The notes beneath the pieces are model-generated. The model was not told the origin of the DNA. It worked only from the letters and a program-made list of their open reading frames with translations, and did not search any database. DNA of 64,000 nucleotides. Origin: an uncultured Thermoplasmata archaeon. Its GTDB lineage: Archaea; Thermoplasmatota; Thermoplasmata; Lutacidiplasmatales; UBA184. The position numbers and the translations under genes were made by a program. This document shows, piece by piece, positions 1,390-21,207 of the stretch (positions are counted from its first letter, which is position 1; the number at the start of each line of letters is the position of its first letter). The stretch is from positions 1,208,545 to 1,272,544 of the forward strand of contig OY970259.1 in assembly GCA_963715645.1 (NCBI GenBank), read 5' to 3'.

Positions 1390-1461
1390 GCTTGTTCGAT
1401 AATCGACTGGATCGCTGAGGCACTCCCTGTTCGGTTTTGAACTGCGATGGCATAGCGGGGG

Positions 1462-3397: not shown

Positions 3398-4324
3398 TTA
3401 TAGGCGACGCCGGAGCAATTCGTAGTCGCTCACTGATCGAGCGATGAAATCCTGAATTTGCAGCTGCCAAGCACCAAGGTCGGCGGAGACACCGCCCGAC
3501 GAATTACGGTCATGCAGTCTGTATCCGGTCAATGCGAAGCGGTCGGTAATGAATGCACCTCCACGGCTGAGCGCGACAAAGAAAAGGGCTGAGTCCAAGG
3601 CAATGTTAAGGTGCGTCAAGATATATGGATCCGCGTCGCAGACTGTTCGACTGACGACGATCGCACTGGAATTCCGGTCAATCCCCTCACTCGATGCGCG
3701 ATGGATCACCCGAGCTGGGTCGAAATCTATCGAGACTTGAGTTCTTGGCGGAGGTCCAGGCGACACCGCTCGACCGGGTGGCTCGAGCGGGATTGATCCC
3801 CTCGGAATCGCGCGTCGTTGGTTATGATAGTATGCGAAGCCGGGGAAATCGGAAATCAGGTTGGCCAAACGGTTAATCTTCCCCGGCAGGAAGAGGTCAT
3901 CGTCATCGAGAAAGGCAATGAATTCTCCACGGGCGAGGTCGAGTCCGGCAGCGACGCGCGGGCCGGTCCTCGGTCCCTCGACCGTCGAGTGAAGGACACC
4001 CTGCGAATCGAGAAGCTGCTCCAGGCTCGAGCTATGGAACCCCTTCACAACAATGACTTCGAATCCCAATCGAGAGTGTGATTGAGCCAGCACCGAGCGC
4101 ACGGCGTCTATGACGTAATCTCGGCGCTCATGACACAGCGTGACGACAGATATCATGGGCTTCGCTGAGTTCGCTGGAGTCGGGAGGCGAACCGTAGCAA
4201 GGGGCTCGCCGAGCGGGTCTACTGTCGGCGGACCCGTGATTCGTGGACCGGCACTCATGCTATCGTCGGGCGCCCACCGAGGCGGCCGGTTCGGGACAAT
4301 CTCCGTATGGTAAGACCGTAGCAC
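3398..4324 (-). CDS. Glycosyltransferase family 2
   Basis: MISVVTLCHERRDYVIDAVRSVLAQS...FEVIVV...FIAFLDDDDLF is a GT2 N-terminal fold with a DxD motif. The true start may be the internal Met before ISVVTL. Confidence 0.75.
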   Translation of the reverse strand: MLRSYHTEIVPNRPPRWAPDDSMSAGPRITGPPTVDPLGEPLATVRLPTPANSAKPMISVVTLCHERRDYVIDAVRSVLAQSHSRLGFEVIVVKGFHSSSLEQLLDSQGVLHSTVEGPRTGPRVAAGLDLARGEFIAFLDDDDLFLPGKINRLANLISDFPGFAYYHNQRRAIPRGSIPLEPPGRAVSPGPPPRTQVSIDFDPARVIHRASSEGIDRNSSAIVVSRTVCDADPYILTHLNIALDSALFFVALSRGGAFITDRFALTGYRLHDRNSSGGVSADLGAWQLQIQDFIARSVSDYELLRRRL

Positions 4325-4450
4325 CGCCGTCGTCCGTCTCCTTTTGCCGCCCGTCCCTCTCGCAGTAGGCGACCCCCGATCTCATTAACGGGACTCGGGT
4401 AAAGGCGAGCGATTGGGCCTGATCACACTTTCTCCGAAGCGGCTGAATCA

Positions 4451-6477
4451 TCACGAGATGGCCGAGATCTGGTCGACTGCTAGTCCCTGGAATGAAATCT
4501 GACCGGTCCAATAGGCATTAACCCCGCGGAACTCCACGTAGCCATAGGTACTGTTGACGGGGACCATGAACGAGAACTGTGTCCACACTCCCCGACCCGA
4601 GAAGGCCGAACCGTTGAGTGTATCATGCCAAACCACGACTCCTCCGGAGTTCGCCGAAACCTGAAGATCGATGCGGTTTGTTGGAGACAAGGATGTGGTC
4701 CGTAAGTGGAAGGTTAACCTATAAAGGCCCGGTGCGAGCGCCGTACTTGGACCGAACCACACCGTAGCTCCCGAAACATTGTCGCCCGAGACATGGTCAC
4801 CCTGGACAGGAAGGGCCGTGGAACCGTTCCAGAATTCATTGGCCGGGAAAGTACGTGCTCAGTGGAACGAGTAAGGCTGGGGTGCCCGTGTAGTTCCTTT
4901 CATAGACGGCCATGCCCGATGCCTCCGCCACCAGACCGAATGAGCCGCTCCTATACAAGTCAGTCAGCAAAGTGTACATGCTGGGGTGGTCTGGGTAGTC
5001 GAAGTAAAACCAAAATGAGAAGGGATCATCGATAATGTAGTTAATCGGGGGTCGTGCCCATTCGCCGCTCGGTGTAAGAATTGACAAGTTCGTCCTGATT
5101 GTAGAGCCCGCAATCAGTGGCGTATTGTCGTAATCGAAGTGACGGACCATCAAGGCGGGCATATTGTTCTGGAACAACACGAAAGGGTCGTCTGGGGGAA
5201 TGAGCGACATTAACGTTTGAAGTGAGTCGGTACCGTGTTAGATTCACATCTGTAGCCGGACCCAGTTGAAAGTCGACAGCACTCCCGGGATTCAGTGGGC
5301 CATACGGCTCGAAAACACATGCTAGTGCGACCATATTTACTATCACTATCAAAGTGAGAATGGTACGTGACCGAGGAGTTCTAATCCAGGTTCGGGCCGC
5401 ACGATACGAAACTCCGGCGGATTTTGCGGACGAATGGTCGCTCCACCCCGACAAAACATCCACTGTTCCGAGATAGAGGAACGGTACAAACAGCACAGCG
5501 TATTGCAGTGTGAACGCGGAGGGATAGACGTAGAGTCCGTTGTTCACAAAGAGATCAAGAGCAATGAAAGGGAGAAGACAAGGCACCCATCGCTTGGAGA
5601 ACAGGGGAAGCGCCATAAATGGCGCAAAGAGAAGTCCGATTGTAAGCAGCTTATTTTCGAAGTCATAGAAGAGCGACGGACTGCTTGATGAATGTATACT
5701 GCCCACGGCGTTCGCCTGGCCGATGACTATGTAGCTTAGAATTAGGGTCGCAACGCATACGAGTGTAAATGCGATCGCGAACGCGGCCCGAGGGGGGATG
5801 ACACGAAAACGCGAACGAAGGAGTCCGGGTAACTCCTCTATGCCGATGATAACGGAGAAGATGGCTGGAAGTATGAGGTATGGAAACCTCACTCCGCCCG
5901 CCAGAAACAAGAGTCCTCCAGCCAAAGCGTACCTTTCTCTCAGAAAGGCGTAGTACCCGAGAAAAAGGAAGAGCATCATCAACGTCTCATAGTGGAAGTC
6001 GAACCAGTTCATCCCAGCAAGCGGGAAGTAGAAGAGATATGACAGGGCGATAGGGAGGGCGATCCCAATCGGGAGCCTATGGTATCGTCCGATGGCATAG
6101 AGTGGCACGACCGCGGCCCCTATAGCAAACGCTTGGAGTGTTAGCAAGAGTGAGAAACTCTGAGGGAGGCTGAGAGGCGAAAATACAATTGCCGTTGGCT
6201 GGCCTAGGAATAGATAGAACCACGCCCGGAAGTCCCCTCCTTCATGGAATGCGAGCCATCCGATCTGCAATCCGGATCCAAGGTCAAAGTTGGTAGCCGT
6301 AAGCGCGTAGACCTTGGAGGTCGTGAGTTCAGACCAATAAACCGTGTAGCTGATTACGGCTATAGCGAGGATTGCTAGGTCGATTCGCTTGCGGAACTGG
6401 GTAACCGCCCGCCGGATTGAAATCATCACATCAGTTGCTTGCCCCCAATCCTCACCCACCACGAGGTGGACGTCCAT
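4451..6477 (-). CDS. DUF2079-like polytopic membrane protein with extracytoplasmic C-terminal domain (three fragments, frame switches near 5210 and 4838)
   Basis: 5041..6477 encodes about 10 hydrophobic helices, with NFDLGSGLQIGW resembling the DUF2079 FDLG motif. The protein continues as SLIPPDDPFVLFQNNMPALMVRHFDY (4836..5210), then YFPANEFWNGSTALPVQG...VWFGPSTALAPGLYRLTF (4451..4762 frame). Confidence 0.55.
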
Positions 6478-7822
6478 GAAGCATCAGGGTCTCCCCAGTA
6501 TAGCTCACACCTGGAGGCGAAGATTGTTCATCGTCTGGGGGTCTGAATTTTGCAGACAGGTCTTGGAGGATAGACCACTCCGCTGAAGCCGCTCTCTCCC
6601 ACGAATACGGGGCAACCGTTTGACGCCCTGCCTCGCCGAGTCTCCGCTGTTCCTGAGGGTTCGAAAGGAGGCGCTCTACCGCGTCCGCGAAACTACTGAC
6701 ACTTCCCAGCGGTACTGCTGTGATGCCTTCTGAATAGACATGACGAAGTTCGGGGAGATCCCAGGCTACCACAGGTGTGCCTAAGGCTAGGCTCTCCATT
6801 ATCGCGATTGACCAACCCTCTGCCAGGCTCGTGGTCGTGAAGACTGAACTCTCCACAATTAGCCGTAGGACATCCTTCCTGGCAAGTACCCCCTTTACGC
6901 TCACGACCCCGTCGAGCCCTCTCTCTGCGATCTCTTTGCGAAGGTCACCCCGTGACATCGTGTCCGCCGCCCCAACCAAGGTGAACTGTGTTTGTGGCAT
7001 CCGTTGGCTAAGTACTTGCCAGACGCCAAGAAGGTCGGACAGACCCTTCTGAGACGACATTCTTCCAACGTATATCACCGAATTTGGCCGATGGGTGAGT
7101 TGAGCAGCCCCCGCGGCGGCGATTTCCTGGATGTCGAGTCCATTCAACCCGGACAAGATGGGCTGCGAATCCCTCCTGAACCGGCTCAGGGATTTGTGGG
7201 CTTCGCCGCTGATAGCGATGATAGTGTCCGCCAAGCCTCCTGTCAGAATCACTACCAAACCTTCGAATAGAGCTGCAAAGACCTCGGCGGCATTGTGTCG
7301 GGCCAACCCCTTGCGACCTTGGACAGTGTGGTGAACGACGGCAACCCACCTAGTCGAGGGACAAATCAGCCTCGCCATCGCAGAAGCGATTACATCTGAT
7401 GGCAGGGTTGAACTCGAATAAAGTATTGTGATTCCCGTGGGCGATCTATTTCGAACGATCCATACCGCAGCCAACAGCCCTCGGAGCACTTGGACGATCA
7501 ATGCGAGGGGTCGCCACTTCGGAAACTCACGAAACGTCGAGTCAACACTGACAAGATGCAGCGGTGTGCCGAGTCCTGCGGTGAGGTCCAAGAGACCCAC
7601 TGAGGAAGAAACGAGATATATCTCTCCTGAATCCATTGGGGCGCGCGCGAGCATTTCGTGCAGCCGGTAGTCCCCGCCGGCTGTAAGTGGTGAGGCTATC
7701 CTCGAGCCTCTTGGCCGGAAGAAGGCGGTCGCAAGAATGATGATTCTTCCAGGGCCACGGCAGGAGTTGGAGCTAGAGGCCTCGACCTCTAATCCCTGCT
7801 TCGTCTTCCGTCCATCGCCCAT
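6452..7822 (-). CDS. Glycosyltransferase family 1 (GT4-type)
   Basis: VIYVGRMSSQKGLSDLL...FTLVGA...VFTTTSLAEGWSIAIMESLALGTPVVAWD is the classic GT1 C-terminal motif set. Confidence 0.8.
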   Translation of the reverse strand: MGDGRKTKQGLEVEASSSNSCRGPGRIIILATAFFRPRGSRIASPLTAGGDYRLHEMLARAPMDSGEIYLVSSSVGLLDLTAGLGTPLHLVSVDSTFREFPKWRPLALIVQVLRGLLAAVWIVRNRSPTGITILYSSSTLPSDVIASAMARLICPSTRWVAVVHHTVQGRKGLARHNAAEVFAALFEGLVVILTGGLADTIIAISGEAHKSLSRFRRDSQPILSGLNGLDIQEIAAAGAAQLTHRPNSVIYVGRMSSQKGLSDLLGVWQVLSQRMPQTQFTLVGAADTMSRGDLRKEIAERGLDGVVSVKGVLARKDVLRLIVESSVFTTTSLAEGWSIAIMESLALGTPVVAWDLPELRHVYSEGITAVPLGSVSSFADAVERLLSNPQEQRRLGEAGRQTVAPYSWERAASAEWSILQDLSAKFRPPDDEQSSPPGVSYTGETLMLHGRPPRGG

Positions 7823-8161
7823 CGAGATGTGGGGAAAAGGTCTGAGGTATTAATCGGGCCGGCGGGGTTCTCGGTTTCGAATGGATCGCGTCCCTAGACA
7901 TAATGCCATTCTGCAGAGCTGCACCACGGCCGAATCCCCAGAGAAGACGACGGACTCAGACCCTCTGCTTCTCCCGTTGCGCTTGCGAAGTTCGGGAACC
8001 TACTCTCTCGACGACTACATTCAGTCCGCTCAGTTCCACCGGTCGTCGACCCGAGCCTACGGAGGATTGTTGCGTATCATTTCTCGAGCTCGTGCGGGGC
8101 TTATCAGCGTGATCCTGCTGGACCCAAATTCCCACGGTCGCTCAAGAAGAGTCAGGATCGT

Positions 8162-8942
8162 TCACGAGCCGGGAACGACATACTCAAAATCCTTCCTGCA
8201 GTAGATATAAACCTGGCTTCGAGTTGTCAAGGTTGCGTACTGATCATACGGAAGCAGCCAACCCTCTCCGGTCTCATTGAACTCACGGATTGCTCTTAGT
8301 TCACCGTAGTCTGGGTGCCCGTGAAACGCCCAAATGTCATCGAAATAGAAAACTGTCCCAGAGTGAAGTAGCGGCCTAAGCCAATTGAGAACTACTCGCG
8401 TCGATGAGTAGTAGTCAACGTCTATTGTAACGATAGATGGTGGGCTTTGAGCCAGCTCGGACCGAAGCGCCGGAGTCAGAGCAGTGTCGAATCTCCCTCC
8501 AACAAGATGGAGGTTGTCCGGGCGATAACCTCTGCAAAGTCTCTTAATCTTCGCGTGAACGTCTTCCATCGCGGCGGAGAAATCGCCCTCATGCCACAAC
8601 GGATTGACATCGGTACTTTTCGGACGACGCGGGCAAACCGGTGAAGGTATCGAATCCGTAAGCGTGGTAATCAGCGAGATTCTTTCCAAAATCTTTGCAA
8701 AACGCCCCAAGCGCGCTATAGTACCGGCTGAGAACATCTCCGAGTCCCACCCCAAACTCGTAGTATGAGTTGCCCGTTCCCCATTTGAACCCCAAGAAGT
8801 AGTCCTGTCGTCTGAGTAGAAAGTAAAAGAGTGAACGAAGGCGGTCCAGTTCGAGTACTCTCTTCGCCTGCTCGAGGCCGAATCTTATCCCGGATCCTCG
8901 ATTCCGTCTCGGCGCAAGCTGCTTTAGATCTGACACTCTCAT
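8162..8942 (-). CDS. TylF/macrocin-O-methyltransferase-family SAM methyltransferase (frame switch near 8630)
   Basis: N-terminal part (8589..8942) reads YEFGVGLGD...AYGFDTFTGLP. C-terminal part (8162..8755) reads HLVGGRFDTAL...IVTIDVDYYSSTRVVLNWLRPLLHSGTVFYFDDIW. Both match the TylF-type DxDxYxST...DDY pattern. Confidence 0.6.
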
Positions 8943-9235
8943 GGAAACCGATTAGTCCGTCCATGCTGAGATGCCATTAGGTCTTGCGCCGGGCCCCAAC
9001 CCCCGATGCCGCAGAAGTGTCAGGTTTGTGTGTGGCACCGATGACAAGCCCTCCACTAACCCGCTTGTTGGGCAGAGCCCTCTCGAATCCATGACTGTCG
9101 AAAACGTGTCCATCGCCCTGCCTACTCGCCAATACAACCAAGGGAAGCCATTCTGTTTACGACACGGCGAACGCAGTCATGAGGCCTGCCTTGGCTGTCC
9201 TCCGCCCGACACCTCACCTAAGCCAATGGATTCGC

Positions 9236-10019
9236 TCAGTTTCCCCCGAACTCGTTCAAGAACCATCGGACGAGCTTGGGGGGGACCCGCTTGCCTACGG
9301 GGGAGTTCATCACCCGCACCCCCAAGAGCGAGACGAACATGACGGGGATTGCGCGGCCCACCGGCATGCGGCTACCGCGGTCGTGCGTCCACTGGACCGG
9401 CACCTCCCGGACGGTGTGGCCGTCCTTGCGGATGTGGTAGAGGAAGTCGACGTCGAACGCTCGGTTCGTCAGCGTCACGGTCTTGAGCACCGGGCGCACG
9501 ACCGAGCGGCGGAAGAACTTCGCCCCGCACTGGGTATCCCGGAGCGGCAGGAACAAGAGCGAGCGGGTGAGCAGGTTCCAGGCCCGTCCGGCGAACCGGT
9601 TGAACAGCGGCTCCCCGTCGGCGCCCGAGGCCCCCCGGATCCATCGGGAGGCGACCACGCAGTCGACGTCCCGCAGGCCTCCGACCAGGTCGTACATCTG
9701 CTCGGGGGAGATTGGTCCGTCCGCGTCGACGTACCCGAGGGTACTCGTGCCGCGCCTCCCGGAGGCCCGCGAGGATCGCACCCCCCTTGCCCAGCTTCGT
9801 CGGGAACTGTAGGACGCGGACGTGCCGGTGCGCGTACTTCGCCGCGACCTCCGCGGTGCGGTCCTGCACGCCGTCCACGACCACGATGACCTCGAACGGG
9901 TCCCCGCGCGCCTCGAGCGACGGCAGGTAGCGCTCCAACGTCCGAGCGAGCCGGTCCTCCTCATTCCACGCGGGAATGACGATGCTCACCCCTGGGACGG
10001 TCGCGTCCGAGGTCGTCAC
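9236..10019 (-). CDS. GT2 dolichyl-phosphate-sugar synthase-like glycosyltransferase (frame switch near 9750)
   Basis: VSIVIPAWNEEDRLARTLERYL...FEVIVVVDGVQDRT...FPTKLGKGGAILAGL (9372..10019 frame) continues as GYVDADGPISPEQM...FLPLRDTQCGAKFF...FDVDFLY (9236..9964 frame). Confidence 0.75.
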
Positions 10020-10156
10020 TGCATGTATTCACGTTTCTCACCCTATATCCACCTTCGCTGGATACGAGACACCTTCCAGGCGGGAAGTATAACCCGGGCC
10101 ATCGCTCAGCGACCACCGGCCAGGGCACCACCATGCCTCCCACGACCCGAGCCGAT

Positions 10157-10345
10157 CCGTGGTCCGCCGGGACGACGTCGTCAGGCGCTCGGTACGAGGC
10201 CAAGGGCAAGCGAGGCGGCCCGCCGGAAACGGTCCGTGGGGCCACCGCTGACCTCCCTTGCAGGAGGCACCTCGCCCTACACGCGAGCCGCCTTCTTCAC
10301 CCGGAATCAACGCGGGCCGCGAGCGCCTTCGCCGAGGAGGGAGGG
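10157..10345 (+). pseudogene. Decayed 5' remnant of a tyrosine-recombinase gene related to 12277..13311
   Basis: 10157-10215 (CCGTGGTCCGCCGGGACGACGTCGTCAGGCGCTCGGTACGAGGCCAAG...) is near-identical to 12267-12325. Downstream YEAKGKRGGPPETVRG parallels YAAKRERGCLPDTIRR of the intact integrase, but frames are broken. Confidence 0.6.
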
Positions 10346-10346
10346 A

Positions 10347-10740
10347 CTAGGGCCGGGCCTTCCCGAACTCGCGATCCTGGGTGACGATACACTCTGCGCG
10401 ACGGACCAGGACGGAGGCGACGATCAACGCATCCGGCAAACGGAGCGAAGTTTTCGACCGGACGACCGCGGCGACGCTCGAGACCTCGAGGTCGACCCGC
10501 ACGATCACCAGGCGGTTCGAGCCGCGAAGGCTAGTCCAGGAACGCCTCCCGCCCTTCCGAATCGCCCTCGGTGGAGTAGCCGGCGCACACCTCGGCTACG
10601 GTGACGGTCGAAACGAGCCGCTGGATTCGACGGTGATGGGCAAGGTCGAGGATTCGACCGCAGTCAGCGTGCTCGAGCTCGCTGGGGCTCTTGGCGCCGA
10701 TGAACACGCTCGAGTCGATGACGGCGAGGGGTCCACTCAT
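10347..10740 (-). CDS. vapC: PIN-domain toxin VapC (frame switch near 10535)
   Basis: [16 protein letters not shown]... (10531..10740) continues in the next frame as [16 protein letters not shown]...[27 protein letters not shown]. These are PIN acidic-residue motifs. Confidence 0.75.
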
Positions 10741-10963
10741 CCCGGAGCCTCCGCTGGAACGGGATCGCCCGGATCGTCCACCGCTTCTGGCGCTGGAACA
10801 AGGCCGGGAGGCTCTCCCGGGGCGCCCTCCGAATGAAGGCGCGGTCGCCCTCGACGTCGAACACGAGGCGATCTCCCTCGGTCACACCGAGGGCGTCCCG
10901 CACCCGCTTCGGCACCGTAACCTGACCCTTGGAGGTAACCGTTCCGATTCCAGCTTCCCCCAT
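10737..10963 (-). CDS. vapB: AbrB/SpoVT-type antitoxin VapB (frame switch near 10805)
   Basis: [29 protein letters not shown] is an AbrB swapped-hairpin motif. An acidic tail (...[19 protein letters not shown]) in the neighbouring frame ends in a TGA that overlaps the vapC ATG. Confidence 0.7.
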
Positions 10964-11012
10964 TGCACAGCGGTAAGGAGATTCCTTCCATTAGGCATTA
11001 CTGCGACCGGGG

Positions 11013-11085
11013 GCTTTGAATCTCATCTCCGCGGAGGGCCGCCCTGAATCGAAACTCAGCTGCCTGAATCAGAACCCATTCGGCC
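11013..11085. repeat. Degenerate copy of the 95-nt element at 11990-12084 (5' arm and core conserved, 3' arm lost)
   Basis: GCTTTGAATCT... and the perfect 14-mer GAATCGAAACTCAG are shared with 11990-12084. By eye about three quarters of the first ~66 nt are identical. Confidence 0.6.
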
Positions 11086-11122
11086 GAAGGTCCATGCTGG
11101 GAGGCGAGTCCCGCGCGACCGA

Positions 11123-11500
11123 TTACTCGCGACGGGGGTCGGCGTCCTTCGGGAACTTGGCGCGCCGCAGATACCGAGCGATCCTCGGAGCGTTGCCACT
11201 CGCGAACTTCCACAGCTCGCCGAGTGCGATCGGCGCGGCACCGATGTCATACGGATGTGCGATGGAGTTGCGAACTCCCACGAAACTCTCCCACGGAACT
11301 CCGGGGTTGGTCTTCTGGAAGCGACCGCTGACCTTCTTGGCGGCCTCGAGGAACAGCTCGGTCGCGTGTTCGAGGGCGTAGCGTGTGGTTACGTCGTCTT
11401 CGACCCGAACCTTGCCACCACGTACTGTAAGTTCGACAACGCCGAGGTGCCGAAGCATCTCGTCCACGAGGAACCGGTCGCGCTGCTCGCCCTCGTTCAT
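11123..11500 (-). CDS. hepT: HEPN (DUF86) toxin HepT
   Basis: VRNSIAHPYD is the R-x4-H HEPN motif. The gene overlaps the upstream nucleotidyltransferase gene by 4 nt. Confidence 0.8.
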   Translation of the reverse strand: MNEGEQRDRFLVDEMLRHLGVVELTVRGGKVRVEDDVTTRYALEHATELFLEAAKKVSGRFQKTNPGVPWESFVGVRNSIAHPYDIGAAPIALGELWKFASGNAPRIARYLRRAKFPKDADPRRE

Positions 11501-11945
11501 GCGGGCACCGCCTCGGCCTCGACCTGTGGAGCGATGGCCCAGTGGAGGTCACCGCGGTTCACCAGGTCCACAGGCCGTCCGACGGCCCGCTCTATCGCGA
11601 CACGAAGAGAAGCGTGTCCCAAGAGCGAAGGGAGCCGTCGCCACTCGACGAGTAGGTCGAGGTCGCTCTTTTCCGTGGCCTCCCTGCGGCGTACGGAGCC
11701 GAAGACGAAGAGACGGCGGGCGCCGTGCTTCCGAGCGAGGCGAAGGATCTCCTCACGGTGCGGAGCGAACACTTCCTCGATCCCGAGACCCTTCCCGAGG
11801 ACCATGGGCCGGACCTTCGGGATGCGCCAGAGCCGCGACTTGCAACGGGGGCACATCGTAGGGGACCGTTGGCGCATCCGCCAAGTGTAGATGCAGCGAT
11901 GACAATGCCCGTACCCGGGGCTTCCTCGGAGTCGTCATCCTCCAT
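11497..11945 (-). CDS. mntA: MntA-type minimal nucleotidyltransferase antitoxin with N-terminal 4-Cys zinc ribbon (frame switch between about 11905 and 11940)
   Basis: FGSVRRREATEKSDLDLLV is the NTase motif GS-x9/10-DxD. Upstream, HCHRCIYTWRMRQRSPTMCPRCKSRLW is only reachable from the ATG at 11945 through one frame switch. It aligns with the paralog at 26842. Confidence 0.75.
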
Positions 11946-11989
11946 ATGGACGGAACCACGAAACTTACTTATACCTGTCGGGGGAACTG

Positions 11990-12084
11990 GCTTTGAATCT
12001 TAACCCCGCCGAACAGCCGCCCCGAATCGAAACTCAGGCGCGTGAATCAAAACCGGGGTGTCCCAGGAGGTTACGATTCAAAGC
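11990..12084. repeat. 95-nt element bounded by 16-nt terminal inverted repeats (15/16 match); MITE-like or recombination-site-like
   Basis: The 5' arm GCTTTGAATCTTAACC (11990-12005) pairs with the 3' arm GGTTACGATTCAAAGC (12069-12084). Three TGAATC-type motifs lie inside. The element sits between mntA and the integrase gene. Confidence 0.7.
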
Positions 12085-12276
12085 ACCGACCGAGGCGCCC
12101 CGGCCGGTGAGACAACGTCGAACCGGGCCGTTCGGACCTAGGGACCCTTCCATGTCCGGGGCCCCGAGCACGGGAGAGCTGGGCGACGATTGCCCGCGAC
12201 ATAGCCTCCCGCCCCCCCACCGTTCACCGTCCGTCGACCGGCGAACGGACTTCGCTGTGGCCGCCCGACACGGGCC

Positions 12277-13311
12277 GTGGTCCGGCGTGACGACGTCGTC
12301 GGGCGCTGGTACGCGGCCAAGCGGGAGCGGGGATGCCTTCCGGATACCATTCGACGGTACCGATGGGTCGTCCGGAGAGCCACCACCTTCCTCCGTCGTG
12401 CTGGGCGGACTCCGGATCCAAGGAAGTGGAGCGTTGAGGACGGCCGGTGGCTCCGCCGTCGCCTCCATGACGACGTCTGGCAGCTCTCCGTCCTCGCCGA
12501 CCTCGCTCGGTTTGCGCGGAACTCGGTGTTCAACGAGGTGGGACTCCCGCGCCGCGGTCCTCCGCTGCGGGTCCGGTGGCTGGCCGAGGGGGCGGTCCGG
12601 GGGCTGGTGGAGGTCACCCGAAGCGATCGCCTCCTTCGACTCGTGGTCCTTCTCGGTCTCGGCCAGGGACTTCGCCGCATCGAGTGGCTTCGGATGCAGG
12701 TCGGTGACATCGATCTCGGGGGCAATCGTCTTCTGGTCCGTGGAAAGGGCCGCGGCCAGCCTAAGCGAGTGTGGATGGCTATGCACCCCGCGCTTCCCCC
12801 TGCCTTCCGGGATTACCTCTGGTGGCGGAACCGGCAGGTCCAGAGATTCCTCCGCCGTTCCCCGTTGACCCCCGTGCCCGACGAGCTCTTCCTCCATCGA
12901 CGTGGCGGCCGCCTGGTCCCGTACGGCGAGGGGGGGGCGAACCGCTGGATGGTCATCCTTCAGCGGCGGCTGGCGGCGAAGGATATCCACGTGAAGCTGT
13001 CGACGCACATGCTGCGTCGCTCGGGGGCTACCCTGATGGAACGGACGCTCCTCGGCTCCCCGGGGGCTTCCCGGGACGGGGTCTACCGTGCCGTCCAAGG
13101 GTTCCTGCGTCACGAGAGCATCGCGACCACGATGCGCTATCTGGAGGCTGATCCATCGCGCCAAGCAGCGGTGATGCAGGCCTTCGCCAACGCCCTCCCG
13201 TGGGACGGGGATGCGGACCCTCCTTCCGGTGACGCCGCTCCGGGTCGACCTTACCTCTCCCGATCCTCTCGTCCGGCCCACCCGAGAATCCGAGCCGAGC
13301 TAGCGGGGTGA
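12277..13311 (+). CDS. Tyrosine recombinase / phage-type integrase
   Basis: LLLGLGQGLRRIEWLRMQVGDIDL (box I Arg), HMLRRSGAT and LRHESIATTMRYL (His-x-x-Arg ... Tyr) place the catalytic residues in the expected order. The ORF is intact. Confidence 0.85.
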   Translation: MVRRDDVVGRWYAAKRERGCLPDTIRRYRWVVRRATTFLRRAGRTPDPRKWSVEDGRWLRRRLHDDVWQLSVLADLARFARNSVFNEVGLPRRGPPLRVRWLAEGAVRGLVEVTRSDRLLRLVVLLGLGQGLRRIEWLRMQVGDIDLGGNRLLVRGKGRGQPKRVWMAMHPALPPAFRDYLWWRNRQVQRFLRRSPLTPVPDELFLHRRGGRLVPYGEGGANRWMVILQRRLAAKDIHVKLSTHMLRRSGATLMERTLLGSPGASRDGVYRAVQGFLRHESIATTMRYLEADPSRQAAVMQAFANALPWDGDADPPSGDAAPGRPYLSRSSRPAHPRIRAELAG

Positions 13312-13734
13312 ACGTGGTACCATGGGCTCTACGGGGGCGGGCCTCGGCTCCGCCAAATGTGGGGCAGACCACCCGTCGAGGGTACGCCGGTTCGGAGGCC
13401 CCGGTAGAGCGGAGTCTGCCCCGGGTGCGATGGCACTTGCAGCCCTGACAGGAGCTAGTCGGTCGGCCAGACACGAACAGCCCCCTAGGGTCGGTCTCCG
13501 AGATGCCGGGTCTCGCTTCTCCTCGTCCTCGCCCGGTTCCTCGCTCCACTGCTTCGGGGTCTTCTTGAACATTTCGAGGCTCATCTGCTCTAGCCGCTCG
13601 ATCCGGACATCGATGTCCTGGCCGGGCTCCGCGGGGGCCTCCGAGGCCCGCCGGGCCGGATATGGGAGACGGGGTTCGCCCCTTCGATGATCGCTGGGCT
13701 GCTAGAATCCGCCAATCGACTCCCTCGCAGTCCC

Positions 13735-13968
13735 TCAGACGAGCCCTTTGGCGTATCCGATCTGGGCCGCGAAACGCCAGGCGCCGGGCGCGAGGAGGGC
13801 GGGGAGCCCTCCCGCGAGTCCTATCGCGACCGGCACTTGCGCTAGGATGGCGCTCGCAAGGGCCAGCTCCAAGCATACGACGGGGAGGAGCACCGCGAGC
13901 GCACGATACTCGAAGCGAAGCCAGACGACCCACACCGTACGCAGGAGGCGAGTTCGGTCACTCGGCAT
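13735..13968 (-). CDS. Small membrane protein (two predicted helices), function unknown
   Basis: The 77-aa ORF has high third-position G+C like real genes here. Hydrophobic stretches are VWVVWLRFEYRALAVLLPVVCLELALASAIL and VAIGLAGGLPALLAP. Confidence 0.4.
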   Translation of the reverse strand: MPSDRTRLLRTVWVVWLRFEYRALAVLLPVVCLELALASAILAQVPVAIGLAGGLPALLAPGAWRFAAQIGYAKGLV

Positions 13969-14193
13969 CGTGCATGCTCCCGGTTTACATGCGACGGTGG
14001 CAAAGCCGGGACCCTACATAGCGCCCCGGTTATACGACAACCCAAGCTTCCGGGCGGTCCCCCCGGCGGCTCGACCCTTCGCGCGGCGGAAGCCTGACTG
14101 ACCACCCGAACTCGGGTCGTAAGGAGCAGACCGACGAACCTACCGATGAGGAAGACCAGCGCGCCGAAGGCGAAGAGTACCTGAGGGCCCATG

Positions 14194-14312
14194 GCTGACA
14201 GGGGGACAATCCGGGGCCTGCTCGACGTCACCCGGAACGGCCGTCTACTCAGGTTCGTGCTGCTTCTCGGCCTCGGTCAGGGCCCCCGGCGGGTCGAGTG
14301 CTGGCGGCTGAC
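14194..14312 (+). pseudogene. Internal remnant of a second tyrosine-recombinase gene
   Basis: ADRGTIRGLLDVTRNGRLLRFVLLLGLGQGPRRVECWRL aligns with AEGAVRGLVEVTRSDRLLRLVVLLGLGQGLRRIEWLRM of 12277..13311. No N- or C-terminal parts are attached. Confidence 0.6.
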
Positions 14313-14373
14313 CCGGAGTGGCCGGGAGGCGCCAAGGCGATATACATGGTCTATATGTAGCGTATGTAGCCCT

Positions 14374-14619
14374 ATGGCGTCTAAGACGGTTGCGCTCGAC
14401 CAAGAGGCCTACGAATTACTGAAGCGACAGAAGAGGCCCGAAGAGAGCTTCAGCGATACCGTCAAGCGCCTGGCCCGGCCACGGCGTCCCATCTCCACTT
14501 TCGGGGGGATGTGGAGCGACATGTCCGAGAGGGAACGCAAAGAGCTCGACCGCACTTACTCTAATCTTCAATCCGCAAATCGGCGACGAGCCGAGAAGAT
14601 TCGACGGTTGTGGAGCTAA
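14374..14619 (+). CDS. vapB: Archaeal VapB-type antitoxin (COG1753/DUF217-like)
   Basis: MASKTVALDQEAYELLKRQKRPEESFSDTVKRL matches the conserved start of this antitoxin family. The gene lies directly upstream of a PIN gene and is preceded by TATA-like repeats TATATGTAGCGTATGTAGC. Confidence 0.7.
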   Translation: MASKTVALDQEAYELLKRQKRPEESFSDTVKRLARPRRPISTFGGMWSDMSERERKELDRTYSNLQSANRRRAEKIRRLWS

Positions 14620-14622
14620 TCC

Positions 14623-15009
14623 ATGAAGTGCCTGGACTCCACGTTCTGCATCGACTTCGCGAACGGAGTGCCGGAGGCCCTGGCCAAAGCCAGCGAGGTC
14701 TCGACCGTCGGCGAGAGACTCGCGATCCCCGCCCCGGCTCTTACCGAGTTCCTCGTTGGGGCCTTCTCCCAGGGAGGGCGACGGCTCGCTCAGGCCCTCG
14801 AGTTTATCGCGGAGCTCGAAGTCTTGGACGTCACCGAACCTATCTCGGTGGATGCCGCTAGGCTGGGAGGGGAGTGCTCACGTCGCGGTGAGTCGGTGGG
14901 GACCCTGGACCTTCTGATTGCCTCCACGGCCAAGCACCATCACGCAACGCTCCTGAGCCGGGACAAGGATTTCGCAAGGATTCCGGGTCTCACGCTCGAA
15001 ACGTATTGA
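14623..15009 (+). CDS. vapC: PIN-domain toxin VapC
   Basis: MKCLDSTFCIDF...LDLLIASTAKHHHATLLSRDKDF has the PIN N-terminal Asp and C-terminal D-x-D/F motif. The ORF is intact at 128 aa. Confidence 0.8.
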   Translation: MKCLDSTFCIDFANGVPEALAKASEVSTVGERLAIPAPALTEFLVGAFSQGGRRLAQALEFIAELEVLDVTEPISVDAARLGGECSRRGESVGTLDLLIASTAKHHHATLLSRDKDFARIPGLTLETY

Positions 15010-16139: not shown

Positions 16140-16403
16140 TCACCGGCCCCGGTCGTAGACTCGGGAGCGATGATCCACTCGTTCCACCAGAACGGTCCGC
16201 TCCGAATGAGAAAGTACGGCGAGGAGCCGATACGCACCGATGCGAAGCTTGTATTCATCCGAGGCGGCCAATCTCGAGAAGAAGTGGTCGGGATCCGAGG
16301 CCGCCACCTCCAGGCGGCCCACAACTCGGCGAGCGACGATCCGATCGAGTCGATGCAGGTCACGGACGGCGGTCTCCGACCATCGAATCGACCAAGGCGT
16401 CAG
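16140..16403 (-). CDS. relE: RelE/ParE-family toxin (start uncertain; no canonical start at the expected CTGA junction)
   Basis: WSETAVRDLHRLDRIVARRV...YKLRIGAYRLLAVLSHSERTVLVERVDHRSRVY is the typical RelE/ParE C-terminal pattern. The frame is open back to the antitoxin stop. Confidence 0.65.
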   Translation of the reverse strand: MTPWSIRWSETAVRDLHRLDRIVARRVVGRLEVAASDPDHFFSRLAASDEYKLRIGAYRLLAVLSHSERTVLVERVDHRSRVYDRGR

Positions 16404-16642
16404 AGGCCCAACCGCTTCTTGACCTGCTCGTGGTCGGTTACCCGTCCCGCCCTGATATCGAGCCGCGCGTTAAGTATCCCCATCCGGAACGCATCGCGGT
16501 AAGTCCCCTCCTCATCACCACGGGGGATCAGGGCCAGTAGCTTGTTCAGGAGCTCATCGTAGGTCTCCCGCGGGGAGCTCTTCAGGGCAGCGAGTCGCTC
16601 GCGTGTCGCGGGAGTTACCTGGATGGTTGTAATCACGGACAA
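16400..16642 (-). CDS. Antitoxin partner of the RelE-like toxin (small RHH-like protein)
   Basis: 80 aa, TIQVTPATRERLAALK...ETYDELLNKLL, directly upstream of and abutting the toxin frame. It is a paralog of 17014..17229. Confidence 0.6.
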   Translation of the reverse strand: MSVITTIQVTPATRERLAALKSSPRETYDELLNKLLALIPRGDEEGTYRDAFRMGILNARLDIRAGRVTDHEQVKKRLGL

Positions 16643-16679: not shown

Positions 16680-16695
16680 CCTCCGATGGCGGGAG

Positions 16696-16895
16696 CTCCA
16701 CTGGCACTGGCTCTTGGCCGGAATCTGGCGAGGATCAGAGGCTCGCCAGGCTCTTGTAGGCGCCCGGGCGGGGCCTAAACGCTACGAACACCACGTTTGC
16801 CCCCTCCACTCGGTACAACCCTCGGTACCTCCTCACGCGCAAGGTCCAGAGCCTCCGACCACCTCTGAGCTGGTGAATATCCAACCGGGCGGTTC
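16696..16895. repeat. Copy 1 of a ~200-bp direct repeat (relE 3' half plus downstream sequence)
   Basis: CTCCACTGGCACTGGCTCTTGGCCGGAATC...GGATCAGAGGCTCGCCAGGCTCTTGTAGGCGCCCGGGCGGGGCC... recurs 702 bp downstream with scattered substitutions. Confidence 0.7.
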
Positions 16896-17013
16896 GCCTG
16901 AGGGGACCGCGGACCATCAACGCAAGCGCAGTCTGGAACTCCCGCTGCACTTCGCGAGGCAGTCGCAGAAACTCACGGCGGGCGGAGGCCGTAGCCTCGA
17001 GACGGTAAGTCAA
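16735..17013 (-). CDS. relE: RelE/ParE-family toxin
   Basis: TTG start abuts the antitoxin stop. LRLPREVQREF...LRGGRRLWTLRVRRYRGLYRVEGANVVFVAF is a RelE-type pattern. Confidence 0.7.
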   Translation of the reverse strand: MTYRLEATASARREFLRLPREVQREFQTALALMVRGPLRRTARLDIHQLRGGRRLWTLRVRRYRGLYRVEGANVVFVAFRPRPGAYKSLASL

Positions 17014-17229
17014 CTACAGCCCGGCGTCGCGAAGCACTTGTGCAATCGGGTAGCGCTTCTCTGTACGGAATCGTCGCTCCATCTCGTCCAGGAACTCCGA
17101 GGGGGGGAACTCTTCCATGAACTCCAGGAGGACATCCCCGTAGGTCTGGCCAGGCCCCTTGTAGCGCTCCAGGGCCCGTCGAACCTCACTTGGGATGGTA
17201 ATTGTCGTGGGTCGCGTACTAGCGGCCAT
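17014..17229 (-). CDS. Antitoxin partner (small RHH-like protein)
   Basis: MAASTRPTTITIPSEVRRALERYKGPGQTYGDVLLEFM parallels 16400..16642. I prefer the ATG at 17229 to the longer track ORF. Confidence 0.6.
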   Translation of the reverse strand: MAASTRPTTITIPSEVRRALERYKGPGQTYGDVLLEFMEEFPPSEFLDEMERRFRTEKRYPIAQVLRDAGL

Positions 17230-17246
17230 GGTCACACCCAGGTTCG

Positions 17247-17272
17247 TCAATTGACTTAACAATTGTGTTAAG
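17247..17272 (-). promoter_or_regulatory. Palindromes TCAATTGA and CTTAAC-AATTGT-GTTAAG; candidate operator of the 16.7-17.2 kb TA operon
   Basis: Both palindromes lie 18-43 nt upstream of the ATG at 17229 in an AT-rich patch. Confidence 0.4.
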
Positions 17273-17397
17273 GGTGAATGGTGGAGGCGTACCTGCGACA
17301 AGACCTGTCATCGAGAGTCGAGACGATCAATTGCCATCGTCCCCCGACTTGGGATCCCTCCTCCTCCCCGAGCAATGTCGACGGGGGAAGGCTGTGG

Positions 17398-17597
17398 CTA
17401 CACCGGCACTTGCACTTGGCCGGAATCGGGTGTGGATCAGAGGTTCGCCAAGCTCTTGTAGGCGCCCGGGCGGGGCCGGAACGCTACGGACACTACGTTT
17501 GCCCTCTTCGCCTCGCACAAACCTTGGTACCTCGTCAGCCGCAACGTTCGGAGCCCCGGACCACCTCTGAGCGGGTGAAAGTCCAACCGGCTCCCCG
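17398..17597. repeat. Copy 2 of the ~200-bp direct repeat
   Basis: CTACACCGGCACTTGCACTTGGCCGGAATC...GGATCAGAGGTTCGCCAAGCTCTTGTAGGCGCCCGGGCGGGGCC... aligns with 16696-16895. Confidence 0.7.
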
Positions 17598-17754: not shown

Positions 17755-18285
17755 ATGTCGCGCCCTGCCGAGTCGATGATGCGCAAGCCGGCGATGACCC
17801 CCTCCGCCGCCTCCTCGGGCGGGCAGCGGTACCGCACGAAGATCGAGGTCCTTCGCGCCCTCCTCGAGAGCACTGCGGCCGAGTCGACCAAGACACGCAT
17901 CCTTCGCCGCGCGAACATGAATCCCGCCTCGTTCGACCGGTACCTTGCTTTCTGCGTGGGCACCGGCCTGGTGGAGTCCGCGGGCCGAAAATTCCACCGG
18001 ACCGTCTCCGGCGATGCTGCGATGGTCGCGATCGACTCTTTGATCGGCAAAGCCGCAGAGCTCGGGTCCGCGATGCAGCAGCTGGGGACATGTCTCGGGG
18101 GCGAGACGTCTCCCGTCGAGAGCACGGCGGCGCTCCGGTTCGCGTCTCTTGCCGCGTGGGACGAGCTCACGCGTCGGAGCGCGCATAGCGGAGGGATGGC
18201 GATGCCTACCCGCGAGGTCCTCGACTCCCCCGGGGTCAATCCCTCCCACTCCCGAGCGCCGCGTCGACCTCGGCTGGTGGCGTAG
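17755..18285 (+). CDS. Winged-helix DNA-binding protein (archaeal HTH_45-like)
   Basis: RTKIEVLRALLESTAAESTKTRILRRANMNPASFDRYLAFCVGTGLVES matches the conserved N-terminal wHTH of this family. Start codon choice is uncertain. Confidence 0.6.
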   Translation: MSRPAESMMRKPAMTPSAASSGGQRYRTKIEVLRALLESTAAESTKTRILRRANMNPASFDRYLAFCVGTGLVESAGRKFHRTVSGDAAMVAIDSLIGKAAELGSAMQQLGTCLGGETSPVESTAALRFASLAAWDELTRRSAHSGGMAMPTREVLDSPGVNPSHSRAPRRPRLVA

Positions 18286-18419: not shown

Positions 18420-21207
18420 CTATCCCTTCGCCCCCACCGCAACGGTGGTCGTGCCGGAGCTGTATACGAAGTTGGTGCTCGCCGGGTAGACCGCCTTGAA
18501 CGTGTACGTCCCGACCTTCGAGGGGGTGATCGAGAACGAGCACTGCGCGACACCACCCGACCCTTTCAACATGCAGCCGGCCGAGAGGTTGGGGCCGGTG
18601 GGCGGCACGATGGTGACCGTCACCTTCCCGCTCGGGGTCAAGGCGGTCCCTGGGCTCGTGTCGACCACCATGACGGTGCACGAGAGCGCTTTGCCGACAT
18701 CCGGGTCGGCCGTCACGCAACTGACCGATGTCGAATCGCTCCGCTTGCTCACGGTGAGGCTGAAGGTCTGCGAGCTCCCCACGTGGTTAGTATCCCCACC
18801 GTAGGCCGCCTTGACCACCGTCTTCCCTTCCGAGCCCGGCGCCGGAGTGAACGTGACCGAGCAGCTGCCGGAGACCAGGGTGCAGGAGGTCGGGCTGAAC
18901 GAACCGCCCTTGTTCGCGCTGAACAGCACCGTCCCGGTCGGCGTCACCGGGGTCCCGCCACTCGTGTCGGTCACGGTCGCCGTGCAGGTCGTAGGGGCGT
19001 TCACCGCGTCGGGGTTCGGCGCACACACGACGTTGGTCGCGCTGCCCCGGGCGGAGACCGTGAGAGGGTCGATGGCGACGCTCCCGAAGTGCAGGGAATC
19101 GCCGGTGTACGCCGCGTTCATGACGAACGAGCCTTCACCGCCCAGCGCCGGAGTGAACGTCACGCTGCAGGCCGACGACGTGCCGCTTCCGGTGGGGGTG
19201 CAGATCCCGACGAAGGAGTGAACGCCCCGGTTCCGGTCCACCCGAATGACACTAACCCCGTGGGGGGGAGTACGGCGGTCGGATTGTCGTTCACCGTGGC
19301 CGAGCAGGTCGCGGGGTCGTTGACCACGAGCGCCCCGCAGCTGATCTCCGTGGTCGTCCCGAGCTCGTTAGCAGAGAGTCCGGTCGTCCCAGAGCTCGAG
19401 TCCCAGTACCCCGCCACGCCCGGGTAAGATGCGGTCACGGTGGAGGTGAGGTCGCTCGGCGTGAAGCTGGCCGTACACTGCGACTCCCCCGCGACCGTGG
19501 GGACGAGAGCACAGGAGGTGGTCGGAGGAATCCCCGGGGGACTGCCCGAGAGCGTCACCGTCCCGGTCGGAGAGGTGTGGATCGCCCCCGAGGTGAGCTC
19601 GGTCACCGTCACGGTGCACGTCGTCGGAGTCCCGACGTCGACCGGATTCGGCGAGCAGCTCACTGCCGTGTTGGTCGGGAGGACGACGTCGAGGGTGAAC
19701 TCGGACGAGTAGTCGGAGACGTGCAGCTGAGCGTCCGTGGCCGTCGCGTACAGCGAATGAGGCCCGGCCCCGAGGTCGACGCCGGACGTGATCAACCAGC
19801 CTCCGGAGCTGTAGTCCGTGGTCAGCGAGGTGCCGAGCAGGGTCGAGCCCTCGCCCTCATAGAGCGAGATCAAGAGCGCGGTTCCCCCACCAGACTGGAA
19901 CTCTCCGTTCATGTCCCCGAGGACGGCCGGGGTCTCGGGTACCTGACGCTCGACGGCGATAGGACCTCGGGGGCGCACGGGAGGAACTGCACGGGATTCC
20001 CCGTTATGAGACCGGGGCCATACACCGCCGAGCAGTAGTTCCAGAAGGTTCCCGGGTTATCCAATGCGAGAGCCCCTGAGTCATCGAAGTTCGCAAACGG
20101 TTCATTCGAAATCGTCGCGCCGAGGGCGTTACTGATGACGCCGTCGTTCGTGAATCCGATTCCGTAGTTCGTGAGGCTGCCGCCTTTGTCGTTCTGGATC
20201 ACCCCGAGGCCGGAGTTGACGAAAGTCGAGTCGCTTTCGAGGAGACCGTTGTTATCGATCGTCCCGCTGTTGCTGCCGCTGCCGGATATGTAGCCTAGGA
20301 AGAAGGACCCCGTGTTCTCGATGGAGCCGCTGACATCGTTGGTGAACGCCCCCGAGTCGATGATCTCTCCCCCGTTCGTCAGGGCTGCGTTGTTGTAGAG
20401 CGTGGAGGAGGTGTCGGCAGTGATCGTTCCGGGGTCGTTGAGAACGCCGCCGGGATCGTTGTTGAACTTCGCCCCCGTGAGCGCTAGGAAGTTGTTGTTG
20501 TCGAACGTGCCCCAGTTGTCGATCTGATTGTTGTCCGAGAGGGTACCCGCGTTGTTGACCGTGCCATACACGACCATGTTGCCCGACTCTTCGTAGGTAC
20601 CATAGTTCGTCAGCGAGAACCCGAGTTCGAGGTAGAACACCGCGCCGGCCTTGTCGTTGAACGTACCTGAATTCGCAACCGGGCCGTTGACGTCGATGTT
20701 GCCAAAGTTGGCGAAGTACCCACCGGACAGGATCGTGATCTGGGCGGTGTCCGCAACCAGCGCTTGACCGTTGATGAGAAGCCCCCCTCCGAGGACGAAA
20801 ATCTGTCCGCTGAGGCTCGCCGAACCCCCGCCGTAGAACTGCAGGATGCCGGCCACCTGGACATCGCCCGGGTTGCTGAAAGAGCCCAAAGAATCCAGCT
20901 CACCGCCGGAGGCAATGTCCAAGGTACCGCTGTCGACGATCGACCCGGTGCTAGTGAACGACCCGGTCATCACGAGCGCGAAGTTCGAGCCGATCGTGAG
21001 GGTGTCCGAGGAACCGATGGACCCCGCGCCGATCGTGCAGGTGTTCGTGATTGCGTCCCAACTAACGAAGACCGCCGGGATACTCTGGCAGTCCAGCAGG
21101 CTGTTGGCATCGTACGACGCGGCGGCCGCGGTGTGCACGAGCACGAGAGGCAGCGCGAGAACGATCGACACGATCAACACCAGCCGAATCGCTTTCTTCG
21201 CCCTCAT
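18420..21207 (-). CDS. Large secreted adhesin-like protein: signal peptide, Asn/Gly/Ser-rich beta-helix-like repeats, then Ig-like repeats (frame switches near 19950 and 19215)
   Basis: MRAKKAIRLVLIVSIVLALPLVLVHTAAAA is a signal peptide. Repeats of the type G-x-L/F-x-N-x-G (19909..21309) follow. Cys-framed modules of about 90 aa then repeat (...SC-x-P-x-P-x-V-x-x-P-T-T-C-T-A/V-T-V-T-D...P-T-G-T-V-x-F...) across 19160..19978 and 18420..19241. Confidence 0.7.

Follow-up and report, generated by a model that had tools for sequence, protein, structure and literature searches.

A tyrosine recombinase, its decayed copies and toxin-antitoxin operons in a surface-glycosylation cluster of an uncultured soil archaeon

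The tandem accretion and decay of elements at one attachment (att) site is known from tRNA-linked genomic islands and from bacterial arrays of integrative and conjugative elements and cis-mobilizable elements (ICE/CIME arrays), and captured elements bordered by integrase fragments occur in Sulfolobus and Thermococcus. A second point of comparison is the sedentary integron of bacterial chromosomes, for example the superintegron of Vibrio, which holds toxin-antitoxin (TA) cassettes. Here we analysed a stretch of 64,000 nucleotides (nt) from contig OY970259.1 of an uncultured soil archaeon of the Thermoplasmata (the window). Within a cell-surface sugar (glycosylation) gene cluster, it carries an intact gene for a tyrosine recombinase (int), two decayed int fragments and TA operons. 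The locus is an ordinary kind of recombination hot spot, with genomic-island-like tandem accretion and decay. What is unusual is that the recombinase is a conserved resident of glycosylation clusters and not a passenger on an identifiable mobile element. We read the region from ~10.0 to 18.4 kb as a long-lived, recombination-prone patch of recombinase modules and TA operons in the surface-glycosylation cluster, in which int came to stand in tandem and then decayed, and we give this reading a probability of roughly 0.55.

As in tandem-accretion islands, int copies and fragments of the window's family lie directly repeated on the same strand with cargo between them, the content of one chromosomal site varies among relatives, and redundant int genes are lost while cargo is kept. 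Unlike those islands, the window has no tRNA gene (none was found in the 64 kb with ARAGORN, and no Rfam match over 9900-14500 even at E <= 5), nothing that can be recognised as an attB, and no repeated att sequence where the island would end. Its int co-diverges with a chromosomal neighbour and is under strong purifying selection. Moreover, the cargo is almost only TA modules, and we found no virus or plasmid hallmark genes and no replication, conjugation or virion genes in the island.

The suicidal integrases of the SSV, pTN3 and pT26-2 type have a PF16795 (Phage_integr_3) catalytic domain (PMC8371274). The window shares with them an archaeal tyrosine recombinase and a short 5' gene piece that is directly repeated across cargo, and an att site may overlap the gene. 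In contrast to them, PF00589 was the only domain of its recombinase at E <= 0.01 in the Pfam search, and the canonical R-K-H-R-H-Y set is kept. The chromosomal gene is unbroken, and the 64 kb hold no int(C) half to complement another, since the recombinase fragments there are limited to aa 1-27 and aa 105-140. A tRNA target is likewise missing, and the hosts of the family are not hyperthermophiles. We found neither PF16795 nor split int(N)/int(C) halves nor a tRNA target and reject membership in this group; the SSV-type analogy drawn in an earlier, sequence-only reading of this DNA thus does not hold as a classification.

Archaeal integrons have been described as well (PMC9668308). Like integrons, the locus has a resident, distantly Xer/IntI-like tyrosine recombinase with variable cargo at its 5' end, among which TA modules are abundant. 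Unlike them, it has no IntI-specific domain score (24.4 bits against a cut-off of 265 for the integron-integrase model TIGR02249, over aa 118-167 only, and 19 bits against 435 for PRK15417) and no attC hairpin arrays in the repeat search, its cassettes lie in both orientations, and int itself is in tandem. On the score, the lack of attC arrays and the mixed cassette orientation we rejected integron membership. The best structural and profile match is archaeal XerA: the PDB profile search returned 5hxy and 4a8e first, followed by the integron integrase IntI4 (2a3v, E 3e-4), and the two-domain architecture of XerA was matched over aa 4-295. Identity with XerA was rejected, since the recombinase scored 48.3 bits with the archaeal XerA equivalog model NF040815 against a cut-off of 220 (the XerC model likewise gave 48 bits, with a cut-off of 335). 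Unlike XerA, the recombinase can have several paralogs per locus, and in the loci compared its neighbours are glycosylation and TA genes, apparently instead of a dif site.

The resident recombinase and its family

PF00589 (Phage_integrase) matched the recombinase with 37.5 bits (cut-off 27.1) over aa 116-293. In all, or in no less than 90%, of 48 aligned sequences the catalytic residues R133/R134, K157, H244-x-x-R247, H279 and Y288 are kept. Compared with its orthologs in the related loci L050, L001, L005, L047 and L009, the ratio of nonsynonymous to synonymous divergence (dN/dS) was 0.07-0.14 at dS 0.84-2.1, from which it follows that the gene has stayed functional over a long period. Homology among int genes ends on the right near aa 309, and the C-terminal tails vary. 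The window's recombinase is 100% identical to a protein on record from a 2.18-Mb contig. Members of the family were found almost exclusively in metagenome-assembled genomes (MAGs) of Thermoplasmata, the label that nearly all of the 98 source-named homologs bear, and the family is stably tied to cell-surface glycosylation clusters. We found no description of this Thermoplasmata-centred tyrosine-recombinase family, though no literature search was aimed at it.

A search of IMG/VR returned no relative of the recombinase. The recombinase, Xer-like and by its sequence functional, is an old resident of the locus rather than a recent viral or plasmid arrival. The sequence-only reading had seen layered mobile-element debris in the island. 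Decayed copies are indeed there, but int is a conserved resident under purifying selection that neighbours the same glycosyltransferase gene in at least six genomes. The absence of a virus or plasmid hallmark and of an IMG/VR relative, together with TA modules that are recurrent neighbours of the family, speaks against debris of a mobile element.

Some genomes also have a divergent paralog without the catalytic His and Tyr (STDMLRR...RSFL). In L034 such a dead paralog (374-1253) lies directly upstream of an active int at 1351, and the dead paralog P0068 is on the same 26.6-kb contig as the full-length paralog P0032. The dead paralog may be a non-catalytic partner of the recombinase.

The duplicated gene start, the empty site and the module boundary

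The start of int is repeated upstream of the intact gene. Positions 12275-12321 align with 10157-10204 at 89.6% identity over 48 columns with one 1-nt gap (E 7e-11, blastn within the window), while a gap-free repeat finder gave 84% over 44 nt. The repeat had been noticed before as the first ~58 nt of int, almost unchanged; it is real, but it spans only 48 nt at 90% with an indel, and the int coordinates had been ~8-10 nt off. The weaker protein-level similarity reported to follow it was recovered by tblastn (50% over aa 9-26, to about +80), with homology reaching ~10236-10240 on the right and ~10100 on the left. Counted from the int start, identity is 55% over -60 to -3, 90% over -2 to +44 and 58% over +45 to +84, and falls to background past that; the contrast between core and flanks is significant (Fisher p = 3e-5). 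The two cores differ at five positions and by one indel. This 1-nt insertion shifts the frame of the remnant. Because the copies are not identical, the assembly duplication that had been considered as an explanation can be dismissed. The second fragment, previously placed at int residues ~103-140, was also found with slightly narrower limits (Table 1); it is in frame upstream of a VapB gene, and by blastn it matches many family members at 70-84%.

Orthologous loci provided the empty site, as the proposed comparison with related genomes had sought. In L001 and L007 a family 2 glycosyltransferase gene (GT2, minus strand) is followed 138 nt on by an intact int, without the 2.1-kb block, and these int proteins are 82-84% identical to that of the window. 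L001 9087-10077 is contiguous with window 9243-10236 (GT2, intergenic region and int 5' end), and L001 9941-10927 aligns to window 12217-13203. Relative to L001, the window has ~2.0-2.1 kb of extra DNA between two diverged copies of -58 to +80. The remnant stands at the GT2-adjacent position of the ortholog's whole int, and therefore the 2.1-kb TA block is an insertion relative to the empty ortholog. The adjacency of GT2 (minus) and int (plus) is found in L001, L007, L010, L051 and L053, and in L005 with an insert between the two genes; at least six genomes show it. Among the syntenic loci GT2 is 77-82% and int 70-82% identical in amino acids (aa), so that the two co-diverge.

The block itself had been described as holding only vapBC, two repeat elements and hepT-mntA. 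Pfam and the repeat finder agreed: between remnant and intact int lie an AbrB/MazE-PIN pair, a HepT-MNT pair and two 65-nt repeats (RE1 and RE2), the PIN gene being split. Other loci hold other versions. In L005 another insert of 2.1 kb, with two open reading frames (ORFs) and a PF02697-type VapB-PIN pair, occupies this position, without duplicated int sequence. L050, which has the closest int, contains a shorter form of the window block without vapB, RE1, hepT-mnt and RE2, and its vapC directly adjoins the int module, at a point that corresponds to window 12214. The contig of L039 holds aa 111-333 of an int gene and, ~195 nt farther on, vapC-vapB; L039 871-1559 is 79% identical in nucleotides to window 10319-11008. 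This is the arrangement to be expected in the window prior to the loss of the left int body. The integration hot spot with TA cargo proposed from the sequence is thus borne out as a variable and recombination-prone site, with empty, alternative and shortened versions and with tandem int genes.

The int modules have a common left boundary. Homology among the right copy of the window, L001, L005 and L050 begins at the CCACCGTTCACCG motif, whose consensus CAYCGTTCA was located at -52 to -60 ahead of 20 int genes, and 13 times in the rest of 580 kb of sequence. The int members that bear it are 43-88% identical (for example at L001 9942, L009 1450 and L044 1370). In the distant L032 clade a related GCACCGTCGAG lies ~60 nt before the annotated start and forms the left end of all three duplicated copies. 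The motif may serve in transcription, as promoter or operator, or else as a site of recombination. Two related candidates were dropped. A site at the int 3' end had been suggested by the second int of L034, whose motif falls at the position of codon ~309 of the first copy; that first copy ends earlier and is the catalytically dead paralog, and the 3' sequence in the window has no such motif. A CGTTC...GAACG dyad downstream of the motif, seen by eye in ~12 of 27 upstream regions at variable spacing, was too inconsistent to model.

Tandem copies and fragments are also found in relatives. L021/L032 hold four full int genes, along with three fragments of the C-terminal part and two of the 5' end, among which genes for DUF234 ATPases, RHH-PIN and MNT are interspersed; with the intact copy downstream, the 5' fragments of L032 share 87-93% identity and the left boundary. 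In L049 (1-11062), two direct int genes surround ~9 kb in which six or more TA modules lie, among them two of RHH_12-PIN, further PIN pairs, a HicB-like one and HepT-MNT; a 947-aa PKD-domain protein follows. L011, L016, L017, L019 and L034 each have more than one int copy or fragment. The near-identical MAG contigs of L031 and L032 (GCA_028866665.1 / GCA_028864975.1) differ, within L032 15096-16600, by a 1203-nt indel that contains one complete int; a 302-nt stretch of the int 3' end is directly repeated at its borders, the mark of unequal homologous recombination. The two L049 int genes are 90-100% identical in the last 200 nt only, which points to gene conversion.

Proposed tandem origin of the arrangement

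Since the remnant occupies the exact GT2-adjacent int position, it is probably the leftover of a second int module copy. In the scenario that we prefer, a module of int and vapBC (possibly with hepT-mntA) would have recombined with the resident module at the module start, within a region that begins with the boundary motif (-58) and ends with the 48-nt core spanning the start codon. A direct tandem would have resulted beside GT2, with int, TA cargo (vapCB, perhaps hepT-mnt) and int again. The body of the left copy, from +81 onward, would then have been deleted, leaving -58 to +80. TA modules are known to resist loss, and the TA operons would have been retained as such modules. The internal fragment, which lies beside the second vapBC, would be debris of a third int copy, and homologous recombination between int repeats may have reshaped the arrays further. 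The sequences themselves show the homologies, the empty ortholog, the module boundary in common, purifying selection, the tandem arrays of relatives and one polymorphism due to homologous recombination. We infer that the integrase made the tandem by a site-specific reaction, in which order the events came and what part the TA genes played.

A recombination of int module starts by the integrase agrees with three observations: the common breakpoint at -58, the identity peak at the start codon and the conservation of codons 1-15, where third-codon-position identity peaks in six of eight ortholog pairs. The identity peak in the start region reflects either constraint or recent exchange at the gene start, and an att site overlapping the start of the recombinase gene is possible. 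If the preferred reading is true, the locus would be a clear, datable example of how an archaeal integrase/TA patch is built up and eroded, with the empty ortholog, the intermediate form and the decayed states all at hand for comparison. Glycosylation clusters are usually the most strain-variable regions and decide virus susceptibility. If the recombinase does act at its own module start, this would provide a testable mechanism for the exchange of surface-variation islands and their stabilising TA genes in uncultured soil archaea.

Several results weigh against this scenario. Purely homologous processes with selection on promoter and gene start also account for the same three observations, if slightly less well. 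The outer end of the island has no second copy of the motif or the core, of which we saw background occurrences only when looking for an outer att site, and the empty site is known from orthologs in other genomes, not from this very genome. Intact paralog pairs in other loci do not consistently peak in identity at the 5' end. In L032 the 5' fragments keep ~90% identity throughout and not in the core alone, and therefore plain duplication and deletion fits them as well as site-specific integration does. The right ends of the 5' fragments differ, at ~+80 in the window and at ~+108 and ~+166 in L032 when counted from the annotated start (+71 and +124 on the aa-1-equivalent scale). The 80-nt spacer between remnant and vapBC (10240-10319) has no significant similarity to the int tail of L039 or of the window and matches nothing else, so that the deletion junction is not reconstructable, and L039 has no int 5' end and thus no direct tie to the left remnant. 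Homologs of vapBC also occur without any int: a search through the PIN homologs gave no intact two-int version of the window arrangement, and the one long contig found has vapBC without int. Finally, the frame splits of GT2, vapC and the remnant relative to intact homologs could be indel errors of the long-read MAG assembly.

We weighed this scenario against other explanations. It could be that no site-specific event took place, which we regard as a rather unlikely alternative. The recombinase would then be a domesticated host enzyme that does something else, for instance regulate the glycosylation locus or rearrange it. Unequal homologous recombination, illegitimate deletion and gene conversion among the resident paralogs would alone have given rise to the tandem copies, the fragments and the TA modules, and the 48-nt similarity would reflect conversion or ordinary constraint on the gene start. 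The kept GT2-int synteny with its co-divergence and the strong purifying selection agree with this, as do the L031/L032 indel with its 302-nt repeat, the converted 3' ends in L049, the lack of an IMG/VR relative and of a mobile-element hallmark gene, and the AbrB-PIN and HepT-MNT pairs as old recurrent neighbours (41-61% aa, including a four-gene block in L012/L014). It explains less readily why the flanks of the int module are wholly different among the window, L001, L005 and L050 and yet break at the same -58 motif, a pattern that a targeted process, or a module under strong selection, would produce more easily, and the paralog arrays are very modular. An improbable explanation follows the logic of suicidal integrases, which the sequence-only reading had brought up: the att core would lie in the first ~48 nt of the int ORF, and the resident recombinase would have integrated, in trans, a non-autonomous 2.1-kb circle with only an int-5'-like att and TA operons, no second full int ever having been at the site. 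The sharp peak over -2 to +44 with its diverged arms is expected when diverged partners exchange in a shared core, synonymous divergence among orthologs is lower in codons 1-15, and the int-less insert of L005 lies at the same intergenic site. A 12-bp palindrome, GACGACGTCGTC, lies within the core of both window copies and also in L005 and L050, but it encodes DDVV and is not kept in L001, L010 and L047. The core sites of tyrosine recombinases contain an asymmetric overlap region, which a perfect palindrome lacks. Further points against the circle are that the family, with PF00589 and its canonical catalytic set, falls outside the SSV/pTN3/pT26-2 superfamily, that the L005 insert has no duplicated int coding sequence, which would place a site-specific crossover upstream of the ORF, that the 5' fragments end at different positions, and that L039 has int ahead of the same vapBC block.

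An integron-like capture platform, with TA cassettes inserted at an attI-like site just upstream of int and the RE repeats as attC-like junctions, is very unlikely. The cargo of the window does lie upstream of int and divergent from it, with an RE copy ahead of each minus-strand TA operon; L005 has other cargo immediately upstream of the motif, the junctions of cargo and int in the window and L050 fall at the same motif, and in L049 ~9 kb of TA modules adjoin int. The IntI profile matches are weak (24-45 bits for TIGR02249, besides the PDB hit 2a3v). Against capture of this kind stand the distance of these scores from the model's cut-off and the L049 array, whose modules have no common repeat family and no attC-like repeats. 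RE is present only twice, with no further copy in the window or in ~50 related loci (blastn and nhmmer profile), and its DNA folds no better than shuffled sequence, apart from the ends of RE2, which form a weak stem. Cassettes are found in either orientation, as though each TA operon had a promoter to itself, and repeated int coding sequence is not an integron feature. It is also conceivable, though doubtful, that the family is a domesticated, vertically inherited part of surface-glycosylation loci and serves as an integron-like gene-capture platform without attC, independent of IntI. It would act at its own module start (CAYCGTTCA at -58 and/or the first ~45 nt of the ORF) and shuffle its own copies, TA operons, DUF234 ATPases and perhaps glycosylation genes, with the catalytically dead paralogs as partners in some genomes. 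Chance similarity or an assembly artefact is effectively refuted. The window comes from a 2.18-Mb MAG contig on which several genes of the region are split between frames, but the E values of the 5' copy (7e-11) and the internal fragment (4e-9) are low, the differences between the copies leave room for neither a collapsed nor a duplicated assembly, and the remnant is colinear with an independently assembled ortholog.

Toxin-antitoxin cargo and surroundings

The features of the island and its borders are listed in Table 1.

Table 1. Coordinates of features in and around the recombinase island, in window positions
Feature	Position	Strand	Remarks
GT2 glycosyltransferase gene	9236-10028	-	conserved left neighbour of the recombinase; two reading frames
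Divergent GT2/int intergenic region	10030-10099		common to L001, L010 and L005; TATA-like CCCTATATCC and GTATAAC
Degenerate boundary motif CCATCGCTCAGCG in the 5' remnant	10099-10111		
5' remnant of recombinase module	10100-10240	+	covers -58 to +80; 48-nt core 10157-10204
vapBC module	10319-11008	-	PIN toxin 10347-10740; AbrB/MazE antitoxin ~10737-10963; Pfam PIN, MazE_antitoxin
Repeat element RE1	11012-11076	+	upstream of minus-strand vapB; repeat families D5, D9
hepT-mntA, type VII TA operon	hepT 11123-11500, mntA 11497-11877	-	Pfam HepT-like, NTP_transf_2
Repeat element RE2	11989-12084 (65-nt repeat part 11989-12054)	+	upstream of minus-strand mntA; repeat families D5, D9, I1
Conserved upstream motif CCACCGTTCACCG	12217-12229	+	left boundary of conserved int module, at -59
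Intact Xer-like tyrosine recombinase gene	12277-13311	+	344 aa, GTG start, PF00589
Internal recombinase fragment, aa 105-140	14203-14310	+	tblastn 64% aa identity, E 4e-9
vapB (PF02697 type) and vapC	~14374-14619 and 14623-15009	+	Pfam, NCBIfam
Truncated ParE-like toxin and DUF7557 antitoxin	16140-16322 and 16400-16642	-	Pfam
ParE/RelE-like toxin and VapB-like antitoxin	16735-17013 and 17014-17301	-	weak Pfam matches
Remnant of ParE gene 3' end	17387-17590	-	no intact ORF
Winged-helix (Sso10a/HTH_45) protein	17755-18285	+	NCBIfam, Pfam
Ig-like surface protein	18420-19241		right of island

The island contains five TA modules. The family domains of AbrB/MazE and PIN, of MNT and HepT and of VapB and VapC were above the Pfam cut-offs, while the NCBIfam model for MntA scored 33.7 bits on the window mntA, below its cut-off of 60. 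DUF7557 reached 31.7 bits (cut-off 25), with its partner ParE_toxin at 21.8 bits just below the cut-off of 23. Both members of the pair at 16735-17301 fall below the Pfam cut-offs (ParE_toxin 22.2 against 23, VAPB_antitox 18.7 against 27.9). The direct repeat D1 (16685-16888 and 17387-17590, 82% over 204 nt) covers the 3' end of the ParE/RelE-like toxin. The PIN gene of the first vapBC is in two frames, split at ~10508-10531, with the Pfam match from its C-terminal half; its L039 homolog, 77% identical, is an intact 147-aa ORF. The AbrB antitoxin ORF of this module extends 24 codons beyond the usual stop.

AbrB-PIN and HepT-MNT are recurrent neighbours of the recombinase family in our neighbourhood census, which was limited to about a dozen annotated loci because most related contigs are short. 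MNT homologs (44-61% aa) lie near int in nine other locus entries and AbrB-PIN homologs in L039, L035/36, L012/14 and L050; L012 and L014 have the same four genes, PIN-AbrB-HepT-MNT, upstream of int. The second vapB and vapC of the window are homologous to the VapB-PIN pair upstream of the L005 int (60% and 43% aa). The winged-helix protein is a recurrent neighbour too, with a 53% aa homolog near the L011 int genes. In L032 (3157-18102) DUF234/ATPase_2 genes alternate with recombinase copies and fragments as a repeated 'int-ATPase' unit, which suggests that they are a second cargo type of the family.

RE1 and RE2 are direct repeats, 82% identical over 66 columns (blastn), with three TGAATC boxes. 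They flank hepT-mntA, and each is located 50-180 nt upstream of a minus-strand TA operon, the two operons being of different families. The ends of RE2 can pair in a 15-16-bp stem (GCTTTGAATC.TAACC / GGTTA.GATTCAAAGC). Neither repeat matches an Rfam family, and the idea that they are att sites made of tRNA fragments was dropped on the lack of any RNA match in this region.

To the left, the minus-strand ORFs 9236-9985 and 9372-10028 are the two halves of what is a single 286-aa GT2 in L001 (80-82% aa). GT2 is intact in L001, L005 and L010, and an ortholog is also present in L007; the frame split in the window means either a pseudogene or a long-read indel error. Farther left, window 1-9000 is a low-GC block (51-58% GC against 62-72% elsewhere) that codes for proteins of the glycosyltransferase, methyltransferase and DUF2079-like kinds. 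The block has the look of a surface-glycosylation island exchanged horizontally, and it ends ~1 kb left of the recombinase locus.

On the other side, the right border of the island is undefinable, since none of the four closest GT2-linked loci compared (L001, L005, L007 and L010) is syntenic past int. The int surroundings in relatives contain sugar-nucleotide enzymes, glycosyltransferases or PKD/Ig-like surface proteins. Within the Ig-like (Big_3_5) surface proteins to the right of the island (18420-19978, minus strand), a repeat unit recurs about every 306 nt (repeat families D2 and D4).

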